NCBI GenBank assembly: GCA_944393225.1
Contig: CALXZK010000006.1
Location: 10,004-74,003, forward strand
Length of the DNA stretch: 64,000 bases
Direction of reading: 5' to 3'
Source: an uncultured Alphaproteobacteria bacterium
Lineage (GTDB): Bacteria > Pseudomonadota > Alphaproteobacteria > RF32 > CAG-239
In this document: piece after piece, positions 25,032-47,015 of the stretch
How positions within the stretch are numbered: the stretch's first letter is position 1
Layout: the number at the start of each line of letters is the position of its first letter
Notes under the pieces: model-generated
The model's database searches: none
Seen by the model: only the letters and a program-made list of their open reading frames with translations
Told to the model about the DNA's origin: nothing
Position numbers and translations under genes: made by a program

Positions 25032-25032
25032 A

Positions 25033-25040
25033 TGGCGGAG
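25033..25040 (-). repeat. att-site direct repeat (displaced tRNA-Ser 3' end CTCCGCCA)
   Basis: Identical to 46924-46931; only 8 bp, but placed exactly between a terminator and the first island sequence. Confidence 0.7.
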
Positions 25041-25086
25041 TAGTAAATCTCAACGGTATTAAGCATACTAAATCAAAAACACTCCA

Positions 25087-25224
25087 ATCCCAAATAACAG
25101 GGAATCTACAGGGAATTTCACTACGATTCTCTCCTCCATACCATCATGTTTACCTTGAATTACTTAGCTTACAAAAAAATCCCTCCCCAAATTATCAGGG
25201 AATTTAAAATTAAATACAGGGATA
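25087..25224 (+). repeat. Cluster of CAGGGA motifs at the island end
   Basis: ACAGGGAAT at 25097-25105 and 25108-25116, CAGGGAAT at 25196-25203, ACAGGGA at 25216-25222; inverted ATCCC half-sites at 25087 and 25179. Confidence 0.7.
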
Positions 25225-25303
25225 AGTATGTTTGTTTTTTTAATTCTTTTTTATATATTTCATAATATGACTATGTAAATAACTAACATTTTTTTATAAG
25301 CAA

Positions 25304-25909
25304 ATGAATGAAAAACATCTTAAATGTGCATTAATTGATTATCTTATGGAAAATTATCCAACGGCTCTTTTAATTGGCGTTGAAATTCCTTTTATCTCAA
25401 TGAGAAGACGAGTAGATGTTTTGATGATTACTGAAGAAAAACAATTAATTGCTTTTGAAATAAAGAGTGATCAAGACAATCTAACTCGTCTTAATGGGCA
25501 AATATCAGATTATAAAAAAACTTTTGATAAATTATATATTGTAACATCTAACAAATATAAAAATATTTGCAAAATGATACCTAATGGCATAGGTTGCCTT
25601 TATTGTAATGATCAAACTATAAAAATTCTTAGAGAATCCAAAACAATAAAACGCCTATCTAAAAAAAACTTATCATTTTTCATTCAGCAAAGTGATTTCC
25701 AGATGATGGGGTATAAAAATTTATCTATAATTGATGCAAGAAAAAAAATTATTAATTCCACTACTACTGATTTATTACGCAATTTTGCTATAAACAGTAT
25801 TTTAAAAAGATATTCAAAAAGATTTACACTTTTTAAGAAATATAAAGAAACAAAAACGTCTATCTCTGATCTTGATTATCTAACAAAGTCATTTGAACTT
25901 CATCTTTAA
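25304..25909 (+). CDS. sce7726/MmcB-like PD-(D/E)XK nuclease-fold protein
   Basis: E...RRVDVL...IAFEIKSDQDNLTRLNGQISDYKKTFDKLYIV. Confidence 0.75.
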   Translation: MNEKHLKCALIDYLMENYPTALLIGVEIPFISMRRRVDVLMITEEKQLIAFEIKSDQDNLTRLNGQISDYKKTFDKLYIVTSNKYKNICKMIPNGIGCLYCNDQTIKILRESKTIKRLSKKNLSFFIQQSDFQMMGYKNLSIIDARKKIINSTTTDLLRNFAINSILKRYSKRFTLFKKYKETKTSISDLDYLTKSFELHL

Positions 25910-26960
25910 ATTCAACAACATTTCTGCTTATATACGAATTTACTCTACAAGATATCCAATGAGATGGATTACTACCATTGGGATTTCCTTTAGATGCTAT
26001 ATTTATTTCATCATCCGCCCAAACTTGAAATTCTTTAATTGGTATATAGTTTTTGTCTTGAATAGTCATTTGTGCAGCAACTACATACCCTCCATCTTCC
26101 CGACGAAAGCGGTAATAATAAGCAAAACGATCATCAAAAAAATCTATTCTTGGAATCCATTGGCCTCCCGCTGTATCATATCTGATAGGGTGGACTGATG
26201 CATAATCAGATGGATAAATATTTATAAATTGTCCATATCGTTGCTTCAGCGAAATAAAAGTACTTTTTTCTAGACGGAGAAAATGCCCATATTTATCATT
26301 TCCATATTTAGTTACAGAATCAGGAAAACAAGAAAAAGCACACAATACTCCTAAAAATTTTTTATAACCAAAAACGCTAATTAGGTTTTGAAGTGTAGAA
26401 TCAAATACTTCTGAAGCATCTGAAGCAAATCTTCTACAATCAATAAATTTAGCATCGAGTATCAAGATTACATTAGAAAGAGAACAACTTTTTTGAATTT
26501 CTTGCAAATAACTTATGATATCTGGATCATCAATATCAACACGAAATGCTAAGTATTTAGAAATTTTTTGAAGTTCAGTGATTTCTGTTGCTACATCATC
26601 TAAAAAATACGGATTATAATGAATTACAGGAATGACTTTCAAATTTTTGTTCTTAAGCTCTGTTATTAAATTAATCCACTCTGGAAATCCACCTTTAGGA
26701 GAATTCAAAATATTTTTGATTTGATCATTTGTAAGCTGGGAATCTATAGAGAGATCCAAAATAAAAGGAGAATCTTTACACAATTCTTCTATTTTATCTA
26801 ATCTCTTATATATAGAACGATCAACATTTTTTGAACTTTTCCTTGACCTGGTTAATTCAAAAATTGGCAATATTTTTTCTTTTACATAAATATCTAAATG
26901 TTCGTACGCTTTCAATTCTGCATCTGTAGTTTTCAAAATTGGAAAATAAACATATCCCAT
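25860..26960 (-). CDS. Beta family protein (P4 beta / sce7725-like)
   Basis: N-terminal YFPILKTTDAELKAY...ILPIFEL, IPVI, SDYASVHP, PRIDF, YYYR, C-terminal WISCRVNSYI; 366 aa. Confidence 0.7.
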   Translation of the reverse strand: MGYVYFPILKTTDAELKAYEHLDIYVKEKILPIFELTRSRKSSKNVDRSIYKRLDKIEELCKDSPFILDLSIDSQLTNDQIKNILNSPKGGFPEWINLITELKNKNLKVIPVIHYNPYFLDDVATEITELQKISKYLAFRVDIDDPDIISYLQEIQKSCSLSNVILILDAKFIDCRRFASDASEVFDSTLQNLISVFGYKKFLGVLCAFSCFPDSVTKYGNDKYGHFLRLEKSTFISLKQRYGQFINIYPSDYASVHPIRYDTAGGQWIPRIDFFDDRFAYYYRFRREDGGYVVAAQMTIQDKNYIPIKEFQVWADDEINIASKGNPNGSNPSHWISCRVNSYISRNVVEFKDEVQMTLLDNQDQR

Positions 26961-26961
26961 A

Positions 26962-27522
26962 TTAATATCCTTTTAAATATCCTAGCTTATAAGCTCTATA
27001 ACGTACTGCTGCAGGCGAGACATTAAAATAATGAGCGATTTCTTCAATTTGATTTATTCCCTTTTTTATTATGTCGTTAAACTCATCTGCAGGCATCAAT
27101 AATTCTGCTGCAAATGTATTCGCCATTCGTTCAATTTTATCTGTAGAAGTATTCTCTCTAAAAAGAATAAAATCATTATGTTTCCCTCTTTCTTCTATTA
27201 ATTCTCTATCAAACAAGAGATGGCCAAGTTCATGAGCTGCTGTAAAACGCTGTCTGGTTTCATTTTGATATTTATTTATACCTATTGTCCATTCATCTTT
27301 TAATTCAATATAACCGGAAATATCTTCCATATCTTCATATATAATGGAGATATTATGCATTTTTAAATATGTAATAATATCGAATGGTATTGTTTCAACA
27401 CCCAAAGACTGAGCATATTTATAAATATCCTCAACATTTGTATATGAAAATATATCATTTTTGAAAAAATTACTTGTAGTTTTTTCTATCAATTTATATG
27501 GATTATTTCGCATCACAACCAT
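26962..27522 (-). CDS. ImmA/IrrE family zinc metallopeptidase (no N-terminal HTH)
   Basis: RQRFTAAHELGH (HExxH), ERMANTFAAELLMP, IAHYFNVS. Confidence 0.93.
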   Translation of the reverse strand: MVVMRNNPYKLIEKTTSNFFKNDIFSYTNVEDIYKYAQSLGVETIPFDIITYLKMHNISIIYEDMEDISGYIELKDEWTIGINKYQNETRQRFTAAHELGHLLFDRELIEERGKHNDFILFRENTSTDKIERMANTFAAELLMPADEFNDIIKKGINQIEEIAHYFNVSPAAVRYRAYKLGYLKGY

Positions 27523-27524
27523 TG

Positions 27525-28103
27525 TTATTCTTCCGGTATTGATATTACATCATCTTCATATGTTTTAGAGTTTTGTATACGCTCTAGTTGATTTTCTAAT
27601 CTTTCAATTTTCCTATTTATATCTTCAACTTGCGTTCCCTCTAAAGCCTCATCGACTCTCGCTCCAACTTTATTAGAAAATTTTACAGACTGAGTGTAAA
27701 TTTCAAAGTGATTATTAACTTCCTTTTCAATAAATTGTTTATTTTTTTCAAATTCTTCTTTTCCTAATGATCGAATATGGATATATCCTAATAAACCAGA
27801 AAGACCTATAAAAATACTTAAAATTGTAATAATTACAGTGTAAAAAGAACTTAACTCGGATATAATATCCGATAGAGGTACAATCTTATTTTTATTAACT
27901 AAATCTGCAATTACTTTTGTATCAGAAGGAATCTTTGTATTATTACAAACTATAATATGTTTATCATAAAAATCTAACAATGGTTCTTTAAATACAACAA
28001 AAAAAATAGATATAAAAAATATCACTACAACCAAAAAACCCAAAGCTCTTAACATCCCATCAATAAAGTAAGAGCATCTACATTTTCTATTATCTTTTTC
28101 CAT
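27525..28103 (-). CDS. Hypothetical two-TM membrane protein with coiled-coil C-terminus
   Basis: Two hydrophobic segments; GAGG SD; 2-bp gap to the peptidase gene. Confidence 0.7.
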   Translation of the reverse strand: MEKDNRKCRCSYFIDGMLRALGFLVVVIFFISIFFVVFKEPLLDFYDKHIIVCNNTKIPSDTKVIADLVNKNKIVPLSDIISELSSFYTVIITILSIFIGLSGLLGYIHIRSLGKEEFEKNKQFIEKEVNNHFEIYTQSVKFSNKVGARVDEALEGTQVEDINRKIERLENQLERIQNSKTYEDDVISIPEE

Positions 28104-28212
28104 AAAAAAACCTCTTGTTGTAATAAAATATTAATCTTAAAATCTCAAAATTCAATATAATTTTATACCTTATATACTCTCATCAAAAATCAATAAAACA
28201 GCCATCTCTTCA

Positions 28213-31200
28213 TCACTCCCCGACGACTTTCATAAGATCTTCGTAGGTTTCGACGACTTCATACTTAACGCTATCGGAGCTAATTGCGGCAAAGTGTTTT
28301 CTGGCGCAGGCAATTTTAGATTTTTCAACCCCTCTTAATTCCAGCTCTAAGTTCTCCATATTTCCTTTAGTTTCTGCTACAAAGTAAATATGTTTGACAC
28401 TTCCCTTATTGAAGGCAATAGCCCAATCGGGGTTATATTTTCCGACCGGAGTAGAAATATAAAATCCTCGAGGCAGCTTTGCATAAACAGCAACTTCTTC
28501 AGCATGCTCCAAAGAATTGGCCATATTTTTCTCTGTCTTAGCACTAGAATCCGCAATAACATGGCTATAAATATGTTTATTGGGTGTCGGGACGGTATTT
28601 TCCAAGCTGCCTTTGAGTTTGGGCTCGGTAAAGACATTCATATCATAAGTTTCCGTAATCCGATCATACTTAATCTCTTCTACAATCGCTGTAGCCTTTT
28701 GCTCATTGATGATATTGGCCGCTCGGGTGATAAATTCTTCCGGATTTGCCTCAAACAGCTTAAATCGGCTTTCTTTTATGCCTGACATTATCTGTGCCAG
28801 AGTTTTTCTGGTTAATCCGGTAAGTTGAACCAACTTATCTAACAAGTCATATTTTACGGAAGTATATTTTCCAACTTGAATTGCTTCTCTGCGTTCGGAG
28901 GTAAAGCCAAAGGCTTCTCCTTTTTCGGCTTGTTGTTTATCCAACTCATCCATTTGTCCGGTTCTAATAACAGCAACCGTTTTACTGACATAAAGTTTTT
29001 CATCTAAGGCATAAATTGCCTTTTTTATCAACTCATCACTGTCAAATACCACGCGATAGGTTGATTTAACATTGATTTTATTCCACAAATCTTGAAATTC
29101 TTGCTGATGAAGTTTTTTATCATTAAGCTTAACCTCAACCACCTGATTGCGTGCATTATCAATTTTGACCGGCTTATAAATTGTTTCAATAACCTTGATA
29201 ATTTCGGCACTATCATATCCTTCAATCGGCTTAAATGTACCGGCCTCAACATCATTATGGTATTGTTCGGTTAATTTACCGCGTTTGACATAACCATTAG
29301 CAATCAAGCTCTCATAAATATCCTGAGATTTTTCTTTATCAACCAGTTGTCCATCAATAGTTCTATTTTCAAACAATTCGGCAGAAATGCTCCGCGGCCT
29401 ATCATGCATTGCATCGGCAATATCGGTTTGCAGATTAGAAACAAAATCTTCATAAGATTCACTGGCAATAACCGTTAGTTGGTTAACTTCTTGAACATCA
29501 TCACCCAAAACACTTTCATCCATACGCTCGCCGTTTTGATTGACCGACAAACGTAAACCGCGGCCAATTTCCTGACGACGAGAAGTATTGTTGTAACTTT
29601 GCTTTAACGGGCAAATCTGAAAAACGTTCGGATTATCCCATCCTTCACGCAAGGCTGAATGTGAAAACAGAAAACGCACCGGCTCGGATAAATTCAAAAG
29701 TTGCTCTTTGTTTTTCATAATCAAATCATAAGCATCAACATCATCTGAGCCGACAGCGTTTCTTTTTACTTCGGAATCCTTAAATTTTTTGCTTTTCTTA
29801 TCTATTGAAAAATAACCCTTATGGCATTTTGTGGCATCGGTATTTTCAATAAATTTTCGATAATTCGGATTAAAATCAAGCTCTGCAAGATAGCTTTCTT
29901 TAATATTGTTATATTCTTCTTCAAAGATTTTGGCATAAATACCGTTAGCCTCTCCGGCATCATTAGAAAGCCTATAATTTGCCACTTCATCAATAAAGAA
30001 CAAAGACAAGACTTTAATTCCGCTTTCCAGCAAAACTTGCTCACGTTCAAAATGGCTTTGGATAGTCTCTCTGATTTGAATGCGCCGCAACTGTTCTTCA
30101 GTTGTGCTGCCGACCACATCTCCGGCAAAAAGCTCGGTTCCATTTTGGAAAGTAACCGAGTTGGAGCGACCATCAATATGTGTAATCAACCAACCATGGC
30201 GATATTCATCCAACTGTCCGGATAAATCATAAAGATTATCCCCTTCATCACAATTCCTGATTTTTTTGACAATGCCGGATTTTCCCCGATAATCAAACTC
30301 CAAACGGGCCGTCGGATTTTTGTTTGCCGAAACATTTATTCCGGCCAAATAAGCATAGCCGCCGGTTGCGCTATCTCCGACCACGGAAATTCCCTTAACG
30401 GCAATCTTTTTGACCAATTTTTTATTATAGGCATCTTGGGCATCCAAGCGATAGATGATATTTTTGTTCAACTCTGGCGGCGTAGCCGAATAACTGATAC
30501 GAAACAAAGGATTAAACCTTTTAATTGCTTTTTGAGTAACGGCATCGGCAGTTCTGCCCAAAGACTGAGGCTCATCCAAAATCAAAATCGGATTTGTTTT
30601 GGCAATCACATCAATAGGTTTGCGCCATTTGAAGCTTTCTTGAGGATTGAAAATTATTTTAGACTCTTTGCTTTTTCCATCTTCTTTGAGTGAGGCGGCA
30701 AAAGCCTGCGAATTGATAATCATCACCCTGATTTTGCTATCTGTGGCAAAGGTTTCAATCTCATTCAAGTTCTGAGAATTATATACAAACTCCATAATAG
30801 ACTTATGATATTCTTGCTGAAAATGCTTGCGTGTATTTTCAAAAGACTTTTTTACCCCTTCCCGAATAGCCACACTCGGCACAACAATAATAAACTTCGT
30901 CCAACCATATAAATAGTTAAGCTCATAAATTGTTTTAATGTAAGTATAAGTCTTACCAGTTCCGGTTTCCATTTCTATAGTTAGGTTAATATCATCGCCA
31001 ACTTTTCCGCTAGGCTTTAGCCCCAGCGCAATTTGCTTTTTGTGAATATTGTCCCAAACTTCTCTTTCAGGAATAAGCAACGGACTATTGGCAAAAGCAT
31101 CTTGCTCAAAAGAGGTTTGCGTATTTTTAACATCTTTTCCGGGATCCAAGATATAACGTGTTGGTTTGGATTTTGGCTGTCCGGCAAAGATATCACAAAC

Positions 31201-31263
31201 CGCGTTGCAGGCATCTATCTGAAATTGCTGATGCTTAAATTTGAGTTCTATTTTTGCCGACAT
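28213..31263 (-). CDS. res: Type III restriction-modification system Res subunit
   Basis: METGTGKT, DEPQ, SAT, LREGWDNPNVFQIC, QEIGRGLRL, C-terminal YNPDWA...VAETKG nuclease motif. Confidence 0.95.
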   Translation of the reverse strand: MSAKIELKFKHQQFQIDACNAVCDIFAGQPKSKPTRYILDPGKDVKNTQTSFEQDAFANSPLLIPEREVWDNIHKKQIALGLKPSGKVGDDINLTIEMETGTGKTYTYIKTIYELNYLYGWTKFIIVVPSVAIREGVKKSFENTRKHFQQEYHKSIMEFVYNSQNLNEIETFATDSKIRVMIINSQAFAASLKEDGKSKESKIIFNPQESFKWRKPIDVIAKTNPILILDEPQSLGRTADAVTQKAIKRFNPLFRISYSATPPELNKNIIYRLDAQDAYNKKLVKKIAVKGISVVGDSATGGYAYLAGINVSANKNPTARLEFDYRGKSGIVKKIRNCDEGDNLYDLSGQLDEYRHGWLITHIDGRSNSVTFQNGTELFAGDVVGSTTEEQLRRIQIRETIQSHFEREQVLLESGIKVLSLFFIDEVANYRLSNDAGEANGIYAKIFEEEYNNIKESYLAELDFNPNYRKFIENTDATKCHKGYFSIDKKSKKFKDSEVKRNAVGSDDVDAYDLIMKNKEQLLNLSEPVRFLFSHSALREGWDNPNVFQICPLKQSYNNTSRRQEIGRGLRLSVNQNGERMDESVLGDDVQEVNQLTVIASESYEDFVSNLQTDIADAMHDRPRSISAELFENRTIDGQLVDKEKSQDIYESLIANGYVKRGKLTEQYHNDVEAGTFKPIEGYDSAEIIKVIETIYKPVKIDNARNQVVEVKLNDKKLHQQEFQDLWNKINVKSTYRVVFDSDELIKKAIYALDEKLYVSKTVAVIRTGQMDELDKQQAEKGEAFGFTSERREAIQVGKYTSVKYDLLDKLVQLTGLTRKTLAQIMSGIKESRFKLFEANPEEFITRAANIINEQKATAIVEEIKYDRITETYDMNVFTEPKLKGSLENTVPTPNKHIYSHVIADSSAKTEKNMANSLEHAEEVAVYAKLPRGFYISTPVGKYNPDWAIAFNKGSVKHIYFVAETKGNMENLELELRGVEKSKIACARKHFAAISSDSVKYEVVETYEDLMKVVGE

Positions 31264-31551: not shown

Positions 31552-31646
31552 TTAACCTTCCACAACTCAACATACAACAATATGCTTCAAAAAGCAGGAT
31601 TCACCATATAAGACAGCGGTACAGCCATTATCTCGAACGGCATAAC

Positions 31647-35244: not shown

Positions 35245-35867
35245 AACTCTTCCTTTAGGGACTTTATCATAGACTTAATTTCTAACTTTTTCTTTAACTG
35301 CGGCTCATTATTCATCTTATTTTCAAGTTGCTCTATCTTTTTTGCGATTTTTTCTTGCTCTATACTTCTTGAAACCTTTTCTTTGAGCCCCTTTTCTGCA
35401 TTGTCTTCAATTTTGCCACCGCTTATTTGCTTAATCAGACTTTCATAGATGGCATCAATGCTTCCTCCTTCTATATCAAGAGAAATCTCTTTTTGCCAAT
35501 TACTTGTCCATCTCTTAACAATGCTGATATTGTCTTTGTTTTTATCTTTATAAGCAATACTAAGGCAATATTTTCCATCAAATTCCAAAACAAACAAAAC
35601 ATATGCTGCGCGAATGCTTTTATCCATTAAATCTAAAAGTTGTGTATTGCATACTCGTCTTTTTAATACAACTCTTAAAACCATTATTTCTGGAAAGATA
35701 CTTCCTTCCTTAACATTTAAGCTTCGTGCCGAGAACTGATTTGTAGCCATAATTTTGGCAACATCATTAGTCATTGCCGTTTTTAAAGAGGTCGAAAATT
35801 CGCCGTATTTATAAAATTTTTCTTTGGCAATAAATTTATTGGGAAGCTCCGTCGACTTTGGAAACAT
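35241..35867 (-). CDS. DUF4391 domain protein
   Basis: MFPKSTE...FIAKEKFY, EIMVL, DAIYESLIKQI, C-terminal IEQLENKMNNEPQLKKKLEI; typical position between SNF2 and mod. Confidence 0.8.
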   Translation of the reverse strand: MFPKSTELPNKFIAKEKFYKYGEFSTSLKTAMTNDVAKIMATNQFSARSLNVKEGSIFPEIMVLRVVLKRRVCNTQLLDLMDKSIRAAYVLFVLEFDGKYCLSIAYKDKNKDNISIVKRWTSNWQKEISLDIEGGSIDAIYESLIKQISGGKIEDNAEKGLKEKVSRSIEQEKIAKKIEQLENKMNNEPQLKKKLEIKSMIKSLKEEL

Positions 35868-39302: not shown

Positions 39303-39466
39303 GGAGCGTTCCTTATAAAATATTAAAATCATGCTATAAAGATAAATCTAATTTTGCAAGAAAAAACTTCAAAAGGAATAAAACGGAGCCAAAAGACTTA
39401 AAATCTATGTTACATAGCTTTTAAATAGAGTACAACATTATACATAAATATATTTAAATAAAAGTA

Positions 39467-39495
39467 TTGACATTTATAATATACTATGATATACA
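39467..39495 (+). promoter_or_regulatory. Sigma70-like promoter for the island backbone
   Basis: TTGACA-17 bp-TATACA with extended TG, followed by AAGGAGG SD and ATG 39525. Confidence 0.6.
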
Positions 39496-39524
39496 TAAGC
39501 ACATAAGAAGGTAAGGAGGGCTCT

Positions 39525-39890
39525 ATGGCATTTGAAAAATTTATTATCCAAACCAAAAAAAACTTCCCAGCTGCGTCAATTTCAACGCTTGGAAGACTTA
39601 GCCTGAATGAGGCTGCAATCGCCGCTTTTGGTTTACAAACAAAAAACTTTGCAGAACTTTTTTACGATTCGGAAAAGGCACTTATTGGCATAAAATTTTT
39701 GAATGCAGCGACAGAAAACAGTCTAAAAGTCCAAAGACGCGACAACTCTGGTATGTTTTTATCGGTTAAAAGCTTCTTCAAAGCCTATCAGATTGACTAC
39801 TCAACTACATATTTTTGTGAAGTATCACAAGATGAAAAGGATAAAGACTTTTTGATAATAAACTTAAACACCAAGACAGAAAGGAGATAA
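39525..39890 (+). CDS. Hypothetical protein (beta-rich, possibly DNA-binding)
   Basis: Strong SD; 121-aa ORF; no confident family. Confidence 0.7.
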   Translation: MAFEKFIIQTKKNFPAASISTLGRLSLNEAAIAAFGLQTKNFAELFYDSEKALIGIKFLNAATENSLKVQRRDNSGMFLSVKSFFKAYQIDYSTTYFCEVSQDEKDKDFLIINLNTKTERR

Positions 39891-40083
39891 ACCAATGAAT
39901 CGCTGATAATAAAAAAAGAGGTTAAGAAACCGCTATTTCCCAACCTCAGAAGAAATGTTAAAAATTAACATCTCCAAGCAAGAGTTATCTTAACATTTCT
40001 CCGAATAGAATCAAGCTTTTTTTACTTATACCATTTGCGGTTTAGGTACAAATTCATTTTTTCAATAAGAAAGGAGAAAGTTA

Positions 40084-41395
40084 ATGGACAATTCATTAAT
40101 TATTGAAAATATAAACCTTACTTCGTTAAAAACATATCATAACAATGCCAAAGTACATAATGAAGAGCAGCTTCAAGCCTTAGCTTCGTCAATTAAACAA
40201 TTTGGCTTTAATTCCCCCATTTTGATTGATGAGAAAAACGAAATCATTGCCGGGCATGGCCGATTAGAAGCTGCCAAAATTGTCGGATTGACAGAAGTTC
40301 CTGCCATCAGGCTAACTCATTTGTCTGAAGCTCAAAAACGCGCATACCGTCTTGCTGATAACAAAATTGCTGAAAAAGGCGGATGGAATGAAGACATTCT
40401 CAAACTTGAACTTTCTGAGTTAGAAAGCCTGTGTAATGATTTTGACATAACGATCACCGGTTTTAGTTCTGTCGAGTTAGATGTGTTGCTTGATGATACC
40501 GGCAATTCACATAAAATTGATAAGCAGCTTAACACTGATCCTTTTGTTCCTGAAAATGAAATAATTACGCAGCCAGGAGATATTTGGCACCTTGGCAATC
40601 ATCGGATTATCTGCGGCAATTCTCAAGATGAAGAAACCTTCTCAAAATTGATGCAAACTCAAAAAGCAAAGATGGTTTTGCAAGATCCTCCTTTTAATGT
40701 TGCCATTAACGGACATGTTTGCGGAAGCGGCAAAACCAAGCATAAAGAATTTGCTTTTGCCTCTGGTGAAATGACTGATGATCAATTTATCAAATTTTTA
40801 GAAACAAACTTCAGACTTTGCGCCTCTTTTTCACAAGAAGGCTCTCTTCACTATAACTTTATGGACTGGCGACATATTCTTCATATATCGGTTGCAGGAA
40901 AAAATGTTTTTGACTCACTGATTAACCTTTGTGTGTGGAACAAAGGAACTGGCGGCATGGGCAGCTGCTACAGAAGCGCACATGAACTCTGCTTTATTTT
41001 CTAAAAGTCACACTAATAATGTTGAGCTTGGCAAAAATGGTCGCTACCGAACAAATGTTTGGAATTATCCCGGAGTAAATAGTTTTGGTCGTCATCGACA
41101 AGACTTAAAAATGCATCCTACAGTAAAACCAGTAGAAATGCTTTATGATGCTATTTTAGATGTAACCAAGCGTGGTGATTTAGTTTTAGATTCGTTTTTA
41201 GGTTCTGGCTCAAGTTTAATCGCTGCCGAGAAAGCACACAGGATCTGCTATGGCATTGAATGCGAGATGCTTTATATCGATACCACAATCAGACGTTTTC
41301 AAAATATCTTCAAGATTGATGCTGTCCGTGAAAAAGACGGTAAGACATACAATCAATTATTGGAAGAACTAAAATCAGGAGACACTCATGACTAA
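40084..41395 (+). pseudogene. ParB/Srx N-terminal domain + N4/N6 DNA methyltransferase fusion, frameshifted near 41000
   Basis: Frame 1: SIKQFGF...IIAGHGRLEAA...AYRLADNK, DPPF, HELCFIF*. Frame 2 continues KSHTNNVELGKNGRYRTNVW...HPTVKP...DSFLGSGS. Confidence 0.85.
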
Positions 41396-41768
41396 TAAGA
41401 CTTATGATGTTGGCTATTGCAATCCACCACAACATTCCCGCTTTCAGAAAGGGAAAAGCGGCAATCCTTCAGGGCGTCCTAAGCACAGCCGAAATACGTA
41501 TAAGCTATTGGAAGATATTTTGGAGCAGAAGGTTTCAATCGTCCAAGATGGTAAGCAAATCAAAATTTCAAAAAAGGTAGCGATTCTTTTGCAGGCGGTC
41601 AATTCTGCGGTTAAAGGCGATACAAAAGCCATTCGCGATTTATTTCCTCATTTGTTGGCTGTCGATGCCAAACAAGAAGAGAAAGAACAAAAAAGAGCTT
41701 CACTTAAAGCTGATGATTTAAGCATAATTAATAATTTTTTGCAAAATAAGGAGACCGGAAATGGTTAA
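41388..41768 (+). CDS. DUF5681 domain protein (small-terminase-like)
   Basis: YDVGYCNPPQHSRFQKGKSGNPSGRPK...AVKGDTKA. Confidence 0.8.
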   Translation: MTNKTYDVGYCNPPQHSRFQKGKSGNPSGRPKHSRNTYKLLEDILEQKVSIVQDGKQIKISKKVAILLQAVNSAVKGDTKAIRDLFPHLLAVDAKQEEKEQKRASLKADDLSIINNFLQNKETGNG

Positions 41769-42252
41769 ATTTAAAGTAGATAAATTACTCAATTTTTTAG
41801 AACAAATAAGTCACAATGCTTCCTCTCCAAAGCAACTACTGCAAAATCTTGCAAAAGATTTCCGGTCGTTAAGCTCAGAAGAACAAAAAGATTTTCAGCA
41901 ATTATTGCTTGATATGCTTGATAAAACTTGCAGTTTTAAAAAGATAAAAATTGCTCAGGATGCCGAAAGTAAAGTAAAAAGACCTGAATTTCCTAAAGAC
42001 ATTTTTGAAAAATTGCTTTGGGAATTACAAGACAAACCATCTGAATATATTGAACCTCGGCTGGAGATGATGCGAGCTTGTCTTTCTTTTCCATCGGGCA
42101 AACAATCTAAAACAGCATCAAGCGCCATTCAAGAAATGAAGTTGAGCTTATCTCACAAAGGTTTTTCATTGGCTAAAAAACGCAACGTCTTCTTAAGATG
42201 TTTGTATGAAACATTTTTACTTCAGGAGCTGTACAATGATATCGATGAATAA
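41761..42252 (+). CDS. Hypothetical helical protein
   Basis: AAGGAG SD; overlaps both neighbouring genes. Confidence 0.65.
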   Translation: MVKFKVDKLLNFLEQISHNASSPKQLLQNLAKDFRSLSSEEQKDFQQLLLDMLDKTCSFKKIKIAQDAESKVKRPEFPKDIFEKLLWELQDKPSEYIEPRLEMMRACLSFPSGKQSKTASSAIQEMKLSLSHKGFSLAKKRNVFLRCLYETFLLQELYNDIDE

Positions 42253-43762
42253 CCAAGACTTGCTTAAGGCCATTTTACGTTCAGATCTAAAATCATTTGT
42301 CACAAAAGTGTTTTTTGATGTATCACCCTCGGCTCAATATCTTGATAATTGGCATATTGATCTTATTTGCCAAGAATTAGCACAAATGATAAATGGTCAA
42401 GAAACGCGTTTAATAATTAACATTCCACCACGATATTTAAAATCCATAATCTGTTCGGTTGCACTTCCAGCTTTTATTTTGGGACATAATCCGCAAAGCT
42501 CTATTATCTGCGTAAGTTATTCGGATGATTTGGCGGCAAAACATGCTAATGATTGTCGCAGAATAATTACCTCACAATGGTATCAAGAGCTATTTCCCGA
42601 GACAGTGTTAAGCAGCAATAAAAAATCAACATCAGATTTTGAAACGACTAAAGGAGGAGGAAGATTTTCTACCTCCATAAACGGCACATTAACCGGACGA
42701 GGAGCAGATTGGATTATAATTGACGACCCCATAAAACCGACAGATGCAATGTCAGATAATATCAGAGATAAAGTTAACGACTGGTACCGATCAACACTGT
42801 ACTCCCGTCTCAACAATAAAGTTGAAGGAAAAATCATTCTAATTATGCAGCGCTTACATGAAAATGATATGACCGGATTTTTGCTTGAAAGCGATAAAAA
42901 GTTTAAGCTCATCAAACTCCCAGTCATTGCGGAAGAAGACGAAACATGGATTTTAAAAAATCAATTTACACAAACAACGCGTACAATCGAGCGACATCCT
43001 GGAGATCTTTTGCATCCGCAGAGAGAAAACCTTGAAACGATTAAAGAATTGCAAGATTCTTTAGGCGAGTTTGCCTTTGCAGGGCAATACCAACAAAATC
43101 CCGTTCCCCAAAGTGGTGGAATGGTAAAAAAGGACTGGATGTACTTTTATAATGAGCTGCCAGCATTTAAGCAAATCATTTTGTCTTGGGATACGGCAAG
43201 TAAAGAGGGCTTTGACAATGCATATTCTGCATACGTCTTACTTGGTGTCGATTATAACCGCAAATATTATTTGATTGAGGCTAATCGTTACCGGCTCAAT
43301 TTTCCAGAACTAGTAAAAACAGTAGATAGAATGAATGATCAATGTATTGATTTATTTAAGCAAAAGCCTGATATCCTTATTGAAGATGCATCATCCGGGA
43401 CACAACTTATCCAAGTTTTAAGAGGAGAATATGGTCTATCTCCACATGCAATTAGAGCTGAGCAAGACAAAATTTCACGTATGCAAGCGGTATCTCTAGC
43501 AATAGAGCAACAAAGACTGTTATTTCCCAATCAAGCCGGAATATGGTATCAAACTTTTGAAAAAGAGCTTTTAACATTTCCAAAATCAAGATTTAAGGAT
43601 CAATGTGATGCTTTGAGTCAAGCCGTGTGCTTTTTATCTTCTGAGATACAAAATCCGCAAATCAAACCGTATATAGCCACCGGCAATCATTTTTACACTA
43701 GTGGACATCGATCAACCTATAAAGTACATCCTATGCGAGATCCAAGGAAACTAAGACATTAA
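42236..43762 (+). CDS. Phage terminase large subunit-like protein
   Basis: Walker A INIPPRYLKS, TGRGAD-WIIIDDP (Walker B), MQRLHEND, YQQNP, RNase H-like LSWDTA / IEDASSG / KDQCDA; AGGAG SD before ATG 42236. Confidence 0.88.
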   Translation: MISMNNQDLLKAILRSDLKSFVTKVFFDVSPSAQYLDNWHIDLICQELAQMINGQETRLIINIPPRYLKSIICSVALPAFILGHNPQSSIICVSYSDDLAAKHANDCRRIITSQWYQELFPETVLSSNKKSTSDFETTKGGGRFSTSINGTLTGRGADWIIIDDPIKPTDAMSDNIRDKVNDWYRSTLYSRLNNKVEGKIILIMQRLHENDMTGFLLESDKKFKLIKLPVIAEEDETWILKNQFTQTTRTIERHPGDLLHPQRENLETIKELQDSLGEFAFAGQYQQNPVPQSGGMVKKDWMYFYNELPAFKQIILSWDTASKEGFDNAYSAYVLLGVDYNRKYYLIEANRYRLNFPELVKTVDRMNDQCIDLFKQKPDILIEDASSGTQLIQVLRGEYGLSPHAIRAEQDKISRMQAVSLAIEQQRLLFPNQAGIWYQTFEKELLTFPKSRFKDQCDALSQAVCFLSSEIQNPQIKPYIATGNHFYTSGHRSTYKVHPMRDPRKLRH

Positions 43763-43818
43763 TAAAACTTGACTTAAGACAATGAAAGAGCCTTCATGCA
43801 ACAATATGGAGGCTCTTA

Positions 43819-44076
43819 ATGTATAAAAAACCGCCTATAGCACACCAATTTCAAAAAGGAAAATCAGGAAATCCGAATGGTCGACCAAAAATCTCCGATT
43901 CGGCACTATTTGATTTGACTTCCTTGTTTTTGCAAGCGTTACTGTTAGCAAGGGACAAAGATAAAAGTTCCCGAGACAAATTAAGCAAAATAAGGGAGAT
44001 ATTGTATGAAAAGGAAAATTCATCTACCCAAAAACATCGAAGAGCTAAAAAAATTATCACAAAAAAAGCAGGCTGA
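43819..44076 (+). CDS. Second, short DUF5681 domain protein
   Basis: YKKPPIAHQFQKGKSGNPNGRPK; GGAGG SD. Confidence 0.7.
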   Translation: MYKKPPIAHQFQKGKSGNPNGRPKISDSALFDLTSLFLQALLLARDKDKSSRDKLSKIREILYEKENSSTQKHRRAKKIITKKAG

Positions 44077-44458
44077 GCTTTGGGAGCGTTATGTAAACAG
44101 CCCTTACAATCACCAGCTTCGAGCATTGTGGTATTATATTGCTTGCGAAAATGCCAATCTTAAGATTGAACGCAAACACCTAATTAAGTTAGAAAAATAT
44201 GCTGAAAACCCGGATGAATGTATGATTAAGGTATACAAAACCAAATATAACCTTCATCCGGGGACAGAAATTACTAAAACCTTCCGCAACCATCAATACA
44301 AAGTTATTATAAATGAAGCAAATAATTTTATTTTTGAGGGCAAACATTATAAAACTCTATCGGCAGTTGCCAAAGAAATATGTGGAATAAAAGTATCAGG
44401 CTATGACTTCTTTGGCTTAAACAACAAACGAGCATTAAAGGAGGCAACACATGACTAG
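44006..44458 (+). CDS. DUF2924 domain protein
   Basis: LHPGTEITKTFRNHQYKV...FIFEGKHYKTLSAVAKEICGIKVSGYDFFGL; directly upstream of a serine recombinase. Confidence 0.85.
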   Translation: MKRKIHLPKNIEELKKLSQKKQAELWERYVNSPYNHQLRALWYYIACENANLKIERKHLIKLEKYAENPDECMIKVYKTKYNLHPGTEITKTFRNHQYKVIINEANNFIFEGKHYKTLSAVAKEICGIKVSGYDFFGLNNKRALKEATHD

Positions 44459-46088
44459 AATAAATTGTGCCGTCTATGTTCGTAAATCTACCGAAAAAGG
44501 ATTGGAGCTTGAGTTTAATTCATTGCACAATCAAGAAGAAGCATGCCGAAGCTATATATTATCACAAGCCTTTAACAACTGGGAGTATTTCAAAACTTAT
44601 ATCGATGGCGGAATTTCCGGTGGCACCATGGAACGTCCGGCCTTAAAACAAATGCTTGAAGATATTCGGCATGGATTAATACAGACAGTGGTGGTTTATA
44701 AAGTCGACCGTTTGTCCCGCTCAATTATGGACTTCCATAATATGATGAAAGAATTCGATAAATATGGTTGCAGCTTTGTTTCAATTACTCAAGCCTTTGA
44801 CACGTCGACTTCCATGGGCAAGCTAACGCTAAACATGCTGCTATCATTTGCTCAATTTGAGCGAGAGGTGTCTTCGGAACGTGTCCGTGATAAAATCCGT
44901 GCCAGTAAAGCCAAAGGCCTATGGACTGGAGGGATTCCTAAACTAGGTTATGATATTATAGATAAAAAACTGGTTATAAATTCAATAGAAGCTGAACAGG
45001 TAAAAGATATTTTTGAAAGCTATTTAAAATGTGAATCTTTGGTAGAACTTGAAACCTTTGTCCAAACCAAAGGAATTACTCATAAACATTGGATTACTAA
45101 TAAAGGTGTTGAGAAAGGTGGAAAACCATTAAAAACATCGGCCTTACATAGGTTATTGCATGAAAAAATATATTTAGGTTTAATTGAAAACAAGAAAACA
45201 GGACAAACTTTCAAAGGACACCATCAAGCAATTATCTCCAAAGAATTATGGGAGCAGGTACAAAATAAGCTGAAAGAAAATGATAAATGCAAAAATCCCA
45301 ATCATGTGCCAAATAATAATTTACTTACCGGAAAGCTGTTTAACACAGAAGGAACCGCCTTTGGCAACCAAGCAAACAGCAAAAAGAAAAGTACAAAACG
45401 CCATTATTACGCAATAAAAGGTTTATTCTTGCCAACAGAGCAAATTGATAAACTTACAAAAGAAGCAATAAGCGAAATTCTTAACAGTAACCTCAATGGA
45501 CTAAACAAAGACAGTTCACTTGCTTTAAAGTTAATAAATTTTGCAGATATGGACTATCTGAAACAGCGTAACTTTATCCGTAACTTTGTTAACAAAATAA
45601 TTTATCAAAAAGATCACTTAACATTCTTTTTTAACACCGATCCTTTAATTCTATCAGCTTATACAGGCAATGCGTTAAACGAAAATAACAATCCATTAGA
45701 CTTTATAGCCGATAATACCAACAATCAAATCATCTATGAAAAACAAGTGATTATTAATCGCGGATTATCAAGTAATGTCTATAATGCAGGAAAAGTTGGA
45801 CTGATGAGTATCAATGATAACAATCGCCTCATTGTCCGTGCCTTAGCTTATGCTTGGAAATTTAAGAAACTCTACGAAAAGGGACTAAGCACCGATGACA
45901 TAGCAAAACAAGAAAAAATGTCGAAACGAACCATCTACAAATACTTAAATCTTGCCTACCTCTCACCAAGAATAATTAATCAACTTCTCGATGGAACCTT
46001 AACCATTAACCTTCAAACACTTTTTGAAATCGCCTCTAAAAACCTGAGTTTTGACGAGCAGGAAAAGATGTTAGTAAAATTTGCTTGA
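44451..46088 (+). CDS. Large serine recombinase (island integrase)
   Basis: CAVYVRKST (catalytic Ser), DGGISG, YKVDRLSR, FAQFERE, recombinase domain, C-terminal HTH (IAKQEKMSKRTIYKYLNLAYLSP). Confidence 0.95.
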   Translation: MTRINCAVYVRKSTEKGLELEFNSLHNQEEACRSYILSQAFNNWEYFKTYIDGGISGGTMERPALKQMLEDIRHGLIQTVVVYKVDRLSRSIMDFHNMMKEFDKYGCSFVSITQAFDTSTSMGKLTLNMLLSFAQFEREVSSERVRDKIRASKAKGLWTGGIPKLGYDIIDKKLVINSIEAEQVKDIFESYLKCESLVELETFVQTKGITHKHWITNKGVEKGGKPLKTSALHRLLHEKIYLGLIENKKTGQTFKGHHQAIISKELWEQVQNKLKENDKCKNPNHVPNNNLLTGKLFNTEGTAFGNQANSKKKSTKRHYYAIKGLFLPTEQIDKLTKEAISEILNSNLNGLNKDSSLALKLINFADMDYLKQRNFIRNFVNKIIYQKDHLTFFFNTDPLILSAYTGNALNENNNPLDFIADNTNNQIIYEKQVIINRGLSSNVYNAGKVGLMSINDNNRLIVRALAYAWKFKKLYEKGLSTDDIAKQEKMSKRTIYKYLNLAYLSPRIINQLLDGTLTINLQTLFEIASKNLSFDEQEKMLVKFA

Positions 46089-46120
46089 TTTTTTTTAATA
46101 TATTTATAACATAACACTAT

Positions 46121-46216
46121 GCTAATGGCTAGCTAGCTCATCCGTGCAAAGATTTTATCAGCCACAGATAACATAAACCTTATGGGTTTATTATCTAACC
46201 AACAGATTACGGATGC
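46121..46216 (+). ncRNA. Candidate structured leader RNA upstream of the 46262 gene
   Basis: CATCCGT (46139-46145) pairs with ACGGATG (46209-46215), enclosing an AGATAA/TTATCT + TAAACC/GGTTTA hairpin. Confidence 0.3.
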
Positions 46217-46261
46217 AAAATTTATAGATAATAAGCTCAACCATTTAATAAGGAATATGTT

Positions 46262-46705
46262 ATGAACAACATTGAATATTTCAAACTACAAGCAAAGAAC
46301 TTATATAAAGATTGGAAAAATAGGGAGCAAAAACTCTGTGTTTTCAATATAAAGGATTTGTTTTATATATATAATGTCAAAATAGATGAAAAACCAACAT
46401 TAATGAGAGCTCAACATTTACTTGCTTTAGCTCTAGGGCGCAATAAATGGGCTGACCTTATTAATGAAGCTGACGAGAAACTTAGCTATACTCGTGAGAT
46501 TATGGAAGCTGAGAGGCTAGAATTTAAAGAAACAAAAATAGAAAATACAATAGAAAATACAGCAGAAAACATTAACGAGAATGGTTATACTGGAGAAGTT
46601 GAGTGCCTACATTGTGGACAACGCTTTCCAATAAACAAACCAAACCATTTACCTAGTTGTGATGGTGAAGAATGGGATTTAGTTCCAGTCGAGGAATTAG
46701 ACTAA
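46262..46705 (+). CDS. Hypothetical protein with helical N-terminus and C-terminal Cys/His motif
   Basis: IEYFKLQAKNL...LMRAQHLLALALG..KWADL; C-terminal ECLHCG...H...C; AAGGA SD. Confidence 0.7.
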   Translation: MNNIEYFKLQAKNLYKDWKNREQKLCVFNIKDLFYIYNVKIDEKPTLMRAQHLLALALGRNKWADLINEADEKLSYTREIMEAERLEFKETKIENTIENTAENINENGYTGEVECLHCGQRFPINKPNHLPSCDGEEWDLVPVEELD

Positions 46706-46721
46706 ACAACATACATTGTTT

Positions 46722-46759
46722 TTAGTGGGCTACTATAAATCTTAGTAGCCCACTAATTT
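46722..46759 (+). terminator. 14-bp perfect hairpin, probable terminator
   Basis: TTAGTGGGCTACTA-7 nt-TAGTAGCCCACTAA. Confidence 0.7.
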
Positions 46760-46884
46760 GACTCTGCAAAAAACGGCAATGTATGTAACTGCCGGAAATT
46801 TTGCGTTTTTTGATTTTAAATGAGCTTACCATAGTCAATTTAGCAAAGTCAACCGCCAGCAAAGCCCGCAATACCGCCAGATAC

Positions 46885-46914
46885 AAAAAAAGACGCTATT
46901 TTCAAGCGTCCTTT
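46885..46914 (-). terminator. Island-supplied terminator downstream of tRNA-Ser
   Basis: Minus strand GACGCT-loop-AGCGTC followed by T7. Confidence 0.65.
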
Positions 46915-46923
46915 CAACTAAAC

Positions 46924-47015
46924 TGGCGGAGAGATAGGGATTCGAACCCTAGGTACCCGTTACCGAGCACAATTGATTTCGAGTCAACCGCATTCGACCA
47001 CTCTGCCATCTCTCC
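46924..47015 (-). tRNA. tRNA-Ser(CGA)
   Basis: Reverse complement GGAGAGATGGCAGAGTGGTCGAATGCG-GTTGA-CT-CGA-AA-TCAAT, long variable arm, CTAGGGTTCGAATCCCTATCTCTCCGCCA. Confidence 0.96.

Follow-up and report, generated by a model that had tools for sequence, protein, structure and literature searches.

A 21.9-kb mobile island (bp 25033–46931 of the 64,000-nucleotide stretch analyzed here, "the window") is integrated at a tRNA-Ser gene in the genome of an alphaproteobacterium from the gut. It belongs to a widespread and apparently undescribed family of elements that have a terminase and a serine integrase, lack capsid genes and bear anti-phage defense cargo. We favor the reading, to which we give about an even chance, that these are helper-dependent, satellite-like elements predicted to package themselves with their own terminase.

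Boundaries and gene content of the island

The island ends had been predicted from an 8-bp direct repeat of the tRNA-Ser 3′ end, and a same-genus genome (G001) with an empty site confirms them; there the left-flank terminator lies directly against the tRNA-Ser 3′ end, with the eight repeat bases common to both flank alignments. The 8-mer by itself is not significant; TGGCGGAG occurs in the whole window only at the two att cores (Table 1), or two matches versus 0.85 expected, and at least two were present in 20 of 100 shuffles. In related genomes the presence or absence of the element falls exactly at the tRNA-Ser 3′ site, and genome G010 has a decayed remnant of ∼6.6 kb at the same tRNA. The tRNA 3′ ends adjoin the recombinase end of the elements, and GC content drops to 27–30% at 25–28 kb of the window.

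Table 1. Features of the island and its insertion site (window coordinates)
Feature	Position	Strand	Basis
attL core TGGCGGAG, copy of tRNA-Ser 3′ end	25033..25040	+	Repeat search; empty site in G001
MmcB-like/"cll" nuclease-fold protein, 201 aa (cargo)	25304..25909	+	Pfam; PADLOC cll E 2e-31
Beta protein, PD-Lambda-2_C-like (cargo)	25860..26960	-	Pfam E 1.5e-39; PADLOC
ImmA/IrrE M78 peptidase (cargo)	26962..27522	-	Pfam E 3e-26; PADLOC capP/RmrA-like
192-aa protein without family match (cargo)	27525..28103	-	Profile scans including Pfam, PADLOC
Type III restriction enzyme Res (cargo)	28213..31263	-	PADLOC REase_III E 2.6e-276
GIY-YIG endonuclease, 87 aa	31263..31526	-	Pfam
Type III methyltransferase Mod (cargo)	31725..33752	-	PADLOC MTase_III E 3e-202
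Schlafen AlbA_2/HATPase_c_4/Fic-like_C protein (cargo)	33670..35244	-	Pfam
DUF4391 protein (cargo)	35241..35867	-	Pfam E 1e-31
Snf2-family helicase, 1085 aa (cargo)	35868..39125	-	Pfam; PADLOC
Conserved backbone	39439..46074	+	blastn, 94–97% identity to three near-identical elements with different cargo
hyp121, kept only within the window's clade	39525..39890	+	Profile scans; locus comparison
ParB_N-N6/N4 DNA methyltransferase, frameshifted	40084..41395	+	Pfam/PHROG; 11-bp deletion at 41001
DUF5681a, putative small-terminase-like TerL partner	41388..41768	+	Pfam E 5e-21; position in LE3; complex model
hyp163, without family match, overlapping both neighbors	41761..42252	+	Profile scans
Large terminase subunit TerL, intact	42206..43762	+	PHROG 38; Terminase_6C; selection and residue checks
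DUF5681b, 85 aa, second paralog, ahead of DUF2924	43819..44076	+	Pfam E 4e-9
DUF2924, overlapping recombinase start	44006..44458	+	Pfam E 1e-18; adjacent in 50/80 loci
Large serine recombinase, 545 aa	44451..46088	+	Resolvase E 2e-40 and Recombinase E 3e-14
hyp147, variable segment	46262..46705	+	Contigs of two runs have other DNA here
Conserved att-proximal non-coding end of element	46759..46923	.	blastn to L037–L039
tRNA-Ser(cga); 3′ end 46924–46931 is the attR core	46924..47015	-	

The 6.6-kb backbone reads hypothetical gene, ParB-MTase, DUF5681, hypothetical gene, TerL, DUF5681, DUF2924 and large serine recombinase. Pfam and PHROGs bear out this predicted gene content, except that the ParB-MTase turns out to be broken; it is split into two frames (bp 40084–41004 and 40931–41395) through the loss of 11 bp. 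This deletion is peculiar to the window copy, being absent from the three near-identical elements and from the contigs of 4 of 4 sequencing runs compared (all runs with the element are total metagenomes), and this copy of the element may be impaired as a result. The recombinase has a Resolvase domain followed by a Recombinase domain in a protein of more than 400 aa, the arrangement of the large serine recombinases; it resembles CcrB and XisF with scores below their equivalog cut-offs. DUF2924 is likely a recombinase accessory.

With Pfam, 20 of the 21 island ORFs (all but hyp66) gave none of the portal, capsid, tail, primase, relaxase or T4SS families, nor did PHROGs give a portal, capsid, tail, primase or relaxase for the 10 backbone ORFs, in agreement with the original prediction, which had recognized none of these genes and no replicase. 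Where no Pfam family exceeded its cut-off, the island ORFs encode 66–192 aa, below the size of portal and major capsid proteins. No regulator was found in the window copy. Cargo occupies 14.4 of the 21.9 kb, which matches the estimate that about two thirds of the island is defense-like, and falls into a Type III restriction-modification group with Snf2, DUF4391 and Schlafen proteins and a PD-Lambda-2-like set; the former includes both the Mod methyltransferase and the Res helicase-nuclease that a Type III system comprises. The GIY-YIG ORF sits on a 462-bp insert that is missing from contigs X1 and X5 of two other runs (joint 31259>31722).

A conserved large terminase subunit

The island protein is a large terminase subunit of the Terminase_6 type; it matches PHROG 38 (E = 3.5e-99) and scores above the cut-off for Terminase_6C (28 bits vs 22.6) and below that for Terminase_6N (19.4 bits vs 22). 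Residues K79, S80, R216, H218, D329 and E393 are invariant in 156–157 of 157 sequences, and K79/S80, D173/D174, D329 and D465/D468 are likewise invariant; we take these to be the ATPase (Walker A/B) and RNase H-like nuclease motifs, and the gene is intact, as had been thought. TerL is 99% identical to the proteins of the near-identical elements L037–L039, from which the window copy differs by 30–44 synonymous and 3–4 non-synonymous changes, and identity is 39–68% among the other relatives. Its dN/dS lies between 0.016 and 0.305 (median 0.086, 21 pairs), which is not the signature of relaxed selection, and all five core genes have values of ∼0.05–0.2. Two of the 10 TerL genes in the bacterial family are damaged, one by a TAG stop and one by truncation.

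Relatives and their distribution

Related loci were taken from three collections (genome, viral [IMG/VR] and metagenome), 80 from each, these being the best 80 by similarity of more than 520 matches per collection, so that more distant portal-linked TerLs fall outside the sample. The 240 loci cover 11 phyla, and only five families recur across them: TerL, ParB-MTase, DUF5681, DUF2924 and the recombinase, present in 79, 72, 62, 50 and 50, respectively, of the genome loci (best 80 of >520), where the sixth-commonest family is in only 7 of the 80. Genome and viral contigs together give 156 TerL rows, with a ParB-MTase/DUF5681 context for 143 of them, the recombinase only for five, a portal for five and none of these for three. 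Where TerL is flanked by 8 kb or more on each side (43 loci), the recombinase is present in 37.

Close relatives do not regularly carry portal and capsid genes. A portal lies beside TerL in five of the 160 genome and viral loci, all five among the 80 from IMG/VR, and in none of the 80 metagenome loci (each set the best 80 of >520). Both ends are present in three elements, the window copy and two complete relatives (21.9, 16.2 and 19.0 kb); no portal, capsid, tail or replicase family was matched in them among the ORFs scanned, which are most of the total (20 of 21 in the window) and include all those of at least 300 aa in both relatives. The 75 ORFs in the interval between TerL and the recombinase include restriction-modification and Mrr families; the 25 families listed, of 53 matched, contain neither a portal nor a capsid. 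Terminal repeats that would indicate a circle were found on the contigs of 0 of the 240 loci. The distribution is patchy: within the bacterial family, 10 of 151 genomes, from 6 of 23 genera, have a member of the TerL family, and none of the 12 other genomes of the genus does. Cargo is swapped while the core stays constant and under purifying selection.

Could the island be a decaying temperate phage from which the head, tail and lysis genes have been deleted? An attL, ParB-MTase, TerS-like gene, TerL, DUF2924, recombinase, attR order may be seen as a WO-like prophage without its middle, to judge from the gene descriptions in PMC10299305, and the frameshifted ParB-MTase, the remnant in G010 and the two damaged TerLs would fit decay. 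Nevertheless, we consider this very improbable. The head-less layout is repeated in 11 phyla with deep TerL divergence and with no partial portal or capsid genes, the five core genes are under purifying selection, and the backbone is constant while the cargo is exchanged; any reduction must therefore be ancient, and the reduced form persists as a type of its own. No structural family (portal, major capsid or tail genes or fragments, by which a prophage is recognized) was matched in the island (Pfam, 20 of 21 ORFs; PHROGs, 10 backbone ORFs), and six structural families are missing from the host assembly (see below).

The putative packaging module

Neither DUF5681 nor DUF2924 has a match among solved structures, and hence the proposal that DUF5681 is a small terminase (TerS) draws on gene position and a complex model. 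In Leptospira phage LE3, a ParB-like nuclease gene is followed by DUF5681, which holds the TerS position and overlaps TerL, and then by the portal gene. In the model, the C-terminal helix of DUF5681a (residues 106–121) docks on TerL residues 16–47 with a score of 0.69, and the best of three controls scored 0.01; 58 of 80 solved complexes attain that mark, as do 2 of 110 mismatched pairs, counts that apply here only approximately because the model was made with our own alignments. At least 42% of contacts agree between runs, and partner pLDDT is at least 65.

The conserved core consists of a ParB-nuclease-like/DNA-methyltransferase fusion, DUF5681, TerL, DUF2924 and the large serine recombinase. 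In the satellite reading that we favor, DUF5681 would serve as the small terminase and, with TerL, would recognize a site on the element and pump its DNA into procapsids from an infecting or co-resident helper phage; the ParB-MTase may mark or cut DNA during packaging, and DUF2924 would help the recombinase. The helper probably has a Mu-type head, because the portal-linked TerLs in the clade adjoin Mu-type portals only. As a satellite, the element would thus travel with a motor of its own, without capsid remodeling, and would carry defense systems between hosts. Packaging into helper capsids is plausible, and the original satellite-like prediction is supported in that the empty junction, the scarcity of portals in close relatives and the selection on TerL all agree with it. 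A wider proposal can be made tentatively: that a satellite family in many phyla, with a terminase holoenzyme (DUF5681, TerL and ParB-MTase) and no capsid, portal or replicase, hijacks helper procapsids, possibly packages while integrated, and is a major unrecognized vehicle of defense genes from gut Alphaproteobacteria to soil Acidobacteriota.

In the 97%-complete host assembly, Portal_Mu, Phage_portal, SPP1_portal, Phage_portal_2, Phage_capsid and tape-measure families were all unmatched, the island TerL is the only TerL, and no candidate helper phage was found. Gene transfer agent heads, which had been suggested as a possible package, are unlikely here because this assembly has no HK97 portal or capsid match. 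In the bacterial family, 5 of the 151 genomes have Mu-type prophages, whose TerLs are unrelated to that of the island.

The host assembly, the island ORFs and the 240 loci yielded no helper, replicase or circular form, which counts against the satellite reading, as do the lack of a regulator in this copy, the broken ParB-MTase and the two damaged TerLs. The want of helper, replicase and circle would also suit a ParB-MTase/DUF5681/TerL trio that acts within the cell, for example as an anti-phage or anti-plasmid device or as a decoy that upsets phage packaging, the element moving otherwise or hardly at all. The elements are indeed rich in defense genes, and a methyltransferase beside an ATPase-nuclease may recall the logic of restriction-modification. 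This we regard as unlikely: in 37 of 43 well-flanked loci DUF2924 and the recombinase accompany the trio while the other genes vary, a pattern of a core and not of cargo; the identical gene order is used for packaging in LE3; and near-identical elements have lost the MTase on two independent occasions and show no sign of losing TerL, which is unexpected if the MTase shields the host from TerL.

Comparison with known satellites and phages

The four satellite families that have been modeled are described as borrowing the helper terminase, bringing only TerS, or bringing a whole capsid (PMC10085698). Like the PICIs and SaPIs, the island is a site-specifically integrated element in the 10–20 kb class with defense or accessory genes, a TerS-like gene that could redirect packaging, and no structural genes; unlike them, it has an intact TerL and a large serine recombinase as integrase, and lacks a replicase, a capsid-morphogenesis gene and, in this copy, a regulator. 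The PICI core, as defined in PMC10085698, is an integrase, an AlpA/Stl/MerR regulator, a primase-replicase, a capsid-morphogenesis gene and TerS, with TerL absent, and by that definition the island is not a PICI, having TerL and no primase-replicase (Pfam, 20 of 21 ORFs; PHROGs, 10 backbone ORFs). The cfPICIs share with it a TerL and a small-terminase-like protein of their own; they are also reported to have a capsid gene, a portal-side head-tail adaptor, a connector and a primase-replicase (PMC10085698). All of these are missing among the ORFs scanned in the window and its complete relatives and do not recur in the 80 genome loci (best 80 of >520). P4-like satellites (Psu/Delta/Sid and alpha primase-helicase) seem to fit no better; no primase, helicase-primase or capsid-size family is among the matches from the general Pfam and PHROG scans. 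The island thus appears to fit none of these three groups, as originally predicted, and its lack of a replicase, and in this copy of a regulator, sets it apart from known satellite families.

The PLEs carry their own replication initiator and, to our knowledge, have no terminase. They are described as anti-phage islands of Vibrio cholerae that integrate by a large serine recombinase and spread in a phage-dependent manner (PMC6002521), and by that description they resemble the island in anti-phage cargo and recombinase type. The account of phage WO gives it a ParB-methylase and terminase end and a DUF2924-recombinase end (PMC10299305); by these gene descriptions, WO is like the island in having a ParB-domain methylase before the terminase and DUF2924 just ahead of the serine recombinase, and LE3 is like it in having a ParB-like nuclease before the terminase and DUF5681 in the small-terminase position. 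In phages of the WO and LE3 type, as far as their descriptions go, the terminase is followed by gpW or portal and then head and tail genes, whereas the island has cargo or nothing there.

Integrative islands that have only an oriT and carry many defense genes are reported to be common (10.64898/2026.01.13.699239), and no relaxase or T4SS family was matched here (Pfam, 20 of 21 island ORFs). On such a view the island might be moved by conjugation from an oriT, or by natural transformation, its terminase module being an inherited phage leftover with some maintenance role. This is quite improbable; serine-recombinase integrases are given for <1% of oriT-only islands in the same report, and some function must underlie the purifying selection seen for the ATPase-nuclease motor and its partner.

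Possible significance of the family

If the satellite reading is correct, a packaging motor and an integrase alone would constitute a fourth satellite strategy, and the common "orphan" terminase genes in genomes and IMG/VR, often scored as prophage remnants or viral contigs, would be explained. A conserved chassis with swappable defense cargo in 11 phyla is a ready source of new defense systems, and its tRNA-targeting large serine recombinases, paired with DUF2924, are a further resource. Testable roles are gained for two domains of unknown function, that of a small terminase for DUF5681 and that of a recombinase accessory for DUF2924. Cultured carriers, namely Nitrobacter vulgaris DSM 10236, Marivita geojedonensis DPG-138 and Methylobacterium trifolii DSM 23632, make the satellite idea open to direct test.

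Insertion site and boundaries

The island had been predicted to be bounded by an 8-bp repeat of the tRNA-Ser 3′ end, and comparison with other genomes of the genus bears this out. The repeat occurs exactly twice within the window, and its left copy lies immediately after a terminator-like hairpin; the repeat alone carries no significance, given 0.85 expected matches and at least two in 20 of 100 shuffles. The same-genus genome G001 has an empty site in which the last 76 bases of the left flank, terminator included, directly join the tRNA-Ser 3′ end, where the original prediction had placed the junction; the eight att bases are common to both flank alignments. A second genome of the genus, G010, carries an ∼6.6-kb remnant of the island in the same tRNA-Ser (G010:C6, locus L030, about 935–7514), in which nothing survives but pieces of the Res, Mod, and Schlafen genes and of the recombinase C-terminus. 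Taken together, the G001 and G010 sequences indicate that the island is a true 21.9-kb insertion at the tRNA-Ser 3′ end that is able to decay in place. No inverted repeat was seen around the att core by eye, and the contig loose ends at 46924 resemble tRNA genes of other organisms.

Relatives of the element likewise adjoin tRNA genes (Ser, Ala, His, or Val) at their recombinase end. In genomes G021 and G027, a single gene of 385–413 aa lies between tRNA-Ser and the element (L013 2835–4525; L012 14678–16128); the G027 gene scans as DUF4238, and that of G021 is flanked by two copies of the 8-base tRNA end, a sequence arrangement that suggests tandem insertions at a single att site.

Features of the island and its variable segments
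Feature	Position	Strand	Remark
att core TGGCGGAG	25033–25040 and 46924–46931		plus-strand reading of tRNA-Ser 3′ end
Low-GC leftmost cargo	25001–28000		'cll'-like, Beta protein, ImmA, hyp192 genes
MmcB/'cll'-like protein			cargo
Beta protein + ImmA/IrrE peptidase			cargo; PD-Lambda-2-like
Type III Res			cargo; PADLOC E 2.6e-276
GIY-YIG segment	31259–31722		462 bp; between Res and Mod
Type III Mod			cargo; PADLOC E 3e-202
Schlafen AlbA_2 protein, DUF4391, Snf2 helicase			cargo
Site of cassette in L038	39404–39438		35 bases in window; 3.68 kb in L038 (3584–7267)
Backbone	39439–46074	+	hyp121, ParB_N-MTase, DUF5681a, hyp163, TerL, DUF5681b, DUF2924, 545-aa large serine recombinase
Deletion in ParB-MTase	41001		11 bp
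tRNA-Ser(cga)	46924–47015	−	ARAGORN

Backbone genes

The backbone makes up the right 6.6 kb of the island (Pfam, PHROGs), and beyond the recombinase lie a 147-aa ORF, which is variable, and a conserved att-proximal end of 170 bp. Its gene order is as originally read; the ParB-MTase had been taken as a single gene and proves to be split in two frames by the 11-bp deletion. The 11 bases are present in the near-identical elements L037–L039 and in contigs of 4 of 4 sequencing runs, which come from four studies. In L038 the ParB-MTase carries its own 50-bp deletion at another position (around 8380), so that among near-identical elements (TerL 99% identical) this gene has been disrupted twice independently, and TerL, DUF5681, DUF2924, and the recombinase are intact in both.

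The predicted lack of portal, capsid, tail, primase, and relaxase genes was upheld: none of these families was matched in the island ORFs scanned with Pfam (20 of 21 ORFs, all except hyp66), PHROGs (10 backbone ORFs), and PADLOC (10 cargo ORFs), nor was a replicase found among the island ORFs scanned. The ORFs without a family, at 66–192 aa, fall short of the length of a portal or HK97-fold capsid protein. NCBIfam gave no further names for the small proteins, and an ESM Atlas search with hyp163 returned low-value leads only.

A recurrent five-gene core

Relatives of the island TerL are patchily distributed: within the bacterial family they turn up in 10 of 151 genomes, representing 6 of 23 genera, and the 12 other genomes of the genus have none. 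Scanning a single genome per species with a TerL alignment returned over 520 hits, and the best 80 loci span 11 named phyla (48 in Pseudomonadota, 15 in Acidobacteriota, then Melainabacteria, Elusimicrobiota, and others). Nitrobacter vulgaris DSM 10236, Marivita geojedonensis DPG-138, and Methylobacterium trifolii DSM 23632 are cultured carriers. When all 1,488 ORFs of the 80 genome loci (best of >520 hits) were clustered, five families recurred, many of the loci being truncated by contig ends; the next commonest family was found in 7 of the 80. Where at least 8 kb was present on each side of TerL, the recombinase was found in 37 of 43 loci; the remaining six include one true phage. The best 80 IMG/VR loci give the same picture; among the best 80 metagenome loci, 62 have the module context, one has the recombinase only, and 17 are short contigs with neither.

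Recurrence and selection of the five core families (recurrence in the 80 genome loci, best of >520 hits; dN/dS by Nei-Gojobori between tree neighbours picked by hand)
Family	Genome loci	dN/dS
TerL	79/80	0.016–0.305, median 0.086 (21/24 pairs; 3 saturated)
ParB-MTase	72/80	0.055–0.144
DUF5681	62/80	0–0.33
DUF2924	50/80	0.058–0.439
Recombinase	50/80	0.069–0.188

Twenty loci have a compact, collinear gene order; 42 are collinear and hold cargo between TerL and DUF2924, 39 are divergent (recombinase-DUF2924 facing ParB-MTase-DUF5681-TerL), and 11 are arranged otherwise. Seventy-five ORFs of 150 aa or more from the interval between TerL and the recombinase were examined, and their commonest families are a divergent DUF2924 (11), DUF3489 (6), Mrr, and further RM components; the 25 families listed, of 53 matched, include no portal or capsid family. 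The DUF3489 protein (six of the 75 interior ORFs, from the 42 loci) may serve the DUF2924-recombinase unit as another accessory. Both ends could be placed for the elements of G027 (16.2 kb, 14-bp repeats) and L058 (19.0 kb, 16-bp repeats), the latter being the one success in 11 further loci of an automated boundary search by tRNA-end repeats. Their other genes encode a C5 methylase, GHKL ATPases, DUF4238, an exo/endonuclease-phosphatase fold protein, glycosyltransferases, and HNH.

Core modules are exchanged between loci: in pairs such as window/L037, L186/L189, L061/L120, and L042/L067, TerL is 97–99% identical, whereas the recombinase is 75–86% identical, and in L042/L067 DUF5681 is 48% and ParB-MTase 67% identical. 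Loci L122, L137, L181, and L234 each have two TerL-like ORFs, sometimes with a second ParB-MTase, and may be tandem elements or contain split genes. In the pair of relatives L016 (5319–7199) and L014 (7237–9300), one has a 626-aa Ser/Thr kinase between TerL and DUF5681b and the other an AAA_13 ATPase adjoining a truncated TerL. The core genes are also present in MT839917.1, which is listed as 'UNVERIFIED Bacteriophage sp.' (5.4 kb; human faeces, Mexico); it was dropped as evidence of encapsidation, as the accession could not be traced to a Mexican VLP virome paper (PMC8361208).

Selection, and the relationship to phages

If the island were a deleted prophage, as the original prediction had considered, its close relatives should regularly carry portal and capsid genes and its TerL should be under relaxed selection. 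Five IMG/VR loci are real phages, with a Mu-type or HK97-type portal, Mu F, and the Mu I protease after TerL. Their TerLs form a single clade (support 99) nested among module-type rows of a midpoint-rooted FastTree tree of 157 TerLs, of which 144 (143 loci and the window) have ParB-MTase/DUF5681 context, five the recombinase only, and three no context; none of the 80 metagenome loci encodes a portal by BLASTP against three verified portals. The low TerL dN/dS values indicate purifying, not relaxed, selection, and K79, S80, R216, H218, D329, and E393 are invariant in 156–157 of the 157 sequences (MAFFT); D173/D174 and D465/D468 are also invariant, but partly ascertained, because they lie inside the peptide patterns that retrieved the loci. 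Judged from these sequences, recurrence and selection together indicate that the head-less form is old, widespread, and maintained, which a recent deletion from a prophage does not account for. Individual copies do decay, as in G010, the window's MTase, and 2 of the 10 TerLs in the bacterial family.

Putative function of the DUF5681-TerL module

The best cultured-phage match to the island TerL is ∼33% identical. The gene order in Leptospira phage LE3 is a ParB-like nuclease, a DUF5681 protein that overlaps the TerL start, TerL, and the portal. PMC10299305 describes corresponding ends for phage WO, with a ParB-domain methylase before the terminase, gpW and a portal after it, and a DUF2924 gene just before the recombinase.

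The AlphaFold model of DUF5681a (pLDDT 86) has a basic unstructured N-terminal arm bearing an invariant SGNPxGR motif, a small helix-hairpin-helix unit, and a long helical hairpin. Small terminases bind the N-terminus of the large subunit through their own C-terminus. The predicted complex supports an interaction between the last helix of DUF5681a (106–121) and TerL residues 16–47 (score 0.69; best of three controls 0.01); at least 42% of contacts are shared between the runs, and the partner pLDDT is at least 65. Of 80 solved complexes, 58 passed the mark applied to such scores, as did 2 of 110 mismatched pairs, counts that are only rough here because custom alignments were used. Given that C-terminus-to-N-terminus mode of binding, the model fits a TerS role for DUF5681. 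In a fold search, the DUF5681a and DUF2924 (pLDDT 85) models had no PDB match at E ≤ 0.001; PDB sequence searches with DUF5681a, DUF2924, and TerL gave nothing usable, and every BFVD match was itself a phage DUF5681 protein.

The likeliest reading, in which we place about even confidence, is a helper-dependent, satellite-like life cycle. The recombinase and DUF2924 would integrate and excise the element at the tRNA; in the packaging steps that we infer, DUF5681 and TerL would recognise element DNA, cut it, and load it into phage-made procapsids, and ParB-MTase would act at this stage. What the data demonstrate is where the element inserts, that its core is conserved and under selection, and that head genes are absent from the ORFs scanned. 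The core definitions in PMC10085698 exclude the element from both the PICIs and the cfPICIs, as originally claimed: unlike a PICI it is without a replicase and a capsid-morphogenesis gene and has TerL, and unlike a cfPICI it is without capsid, adaptor, and connector genes. It has a large serine recombinase in common with PLE, and flanking modules in common with WO-like and LE3-like phages. We rate it a phage-satellite-like integrative element, of a five-gene form for which no description was found in the open-access literature.

Several results count against the satellite reading. No replicase was found, the TerLs of Mu-type prophages in this bacterial family are unrelated to the island TerL, and the host assembly (1.7 Mb, 97% complete) has no match to any of six structural families searched for as signs of a helper, nor any tblastn match to the three verified portals. 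No circular contig was recognised among the 240 loci either: terminal direct repeats of at least 20 bases were lacking in the 160 genome and viral loci and in L002, and those of at least 15 bases in the 80 from metagenomes. An RcGTA-like route is unlikely in this host, because HK97-type portal and capsid families were not found in the assembly.

Mu-type portals are present in 5 of the 151 genomes of the bacterial family, in 2 of 10 TerL-positive and 3 of 141 other genomes (Fisher p = 0.036, the kin being non-independent). This co-occurrence was set aside as helper evidence, since besides this kinship the two 151-genome samples are presumed identical (they have the same genus tallies), and the TerLs in the flanks of these portals, and that of a prophage in genome G098, are unrelated to the island TerL. 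The G098 prophage (G098:C1, about 69000–96000; L285, L286) is apparently Mu-like and lies beside tRNA-Ala, ∼22 kb from the element on the same contig; its Mu-type portal was confirmed, and a 569-aa ORF occupies the large-terminase position just upstream.

Cargo and variable segments

The left 14.4 kb of the 21.9-kb island is defence-like cargo, mostly on the minus strand (Pfam; PADLOC on 10 cargo ORFs), in agreement with the predicted two thirds. Its leftmost part has a GC content of 27–30%, compared with 33–40% in the remainder of the island, and may be a later addition. The GIY-YIG gene (87 aa) lies on a segment that is exactly skipped in contigs of sequencing runs X1 and X5, with eight bases that fit either side, and looks like a homing-endonuclease-type insertion inside the RM operon. 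Run X9 gives little or no cover of the cargo part, and one of its contigs matches from 39439 on, preceded by 12.4 kb absent from the window, which is no more than a hint of other cargo.

The L038 cassette encodes an HTH repressor, a 294-aa unknown protein, a 398-aa metallo-beta-lactamase-fold (RMMBL) protein, a 232-aa unknown protein, and a 100-aa protein. The HTH, ∼298-aa, and 398-aa genes are kept in five loci (L037–L041), and the 232-aa and 100-aa genes are found in L037–L039 only, their place being taken in L040 and L041 by a 329-aa WYL/WCX protein (domain scan of L040). The L037–L041 cassette may be a defence system or a regulatory module of this clade.
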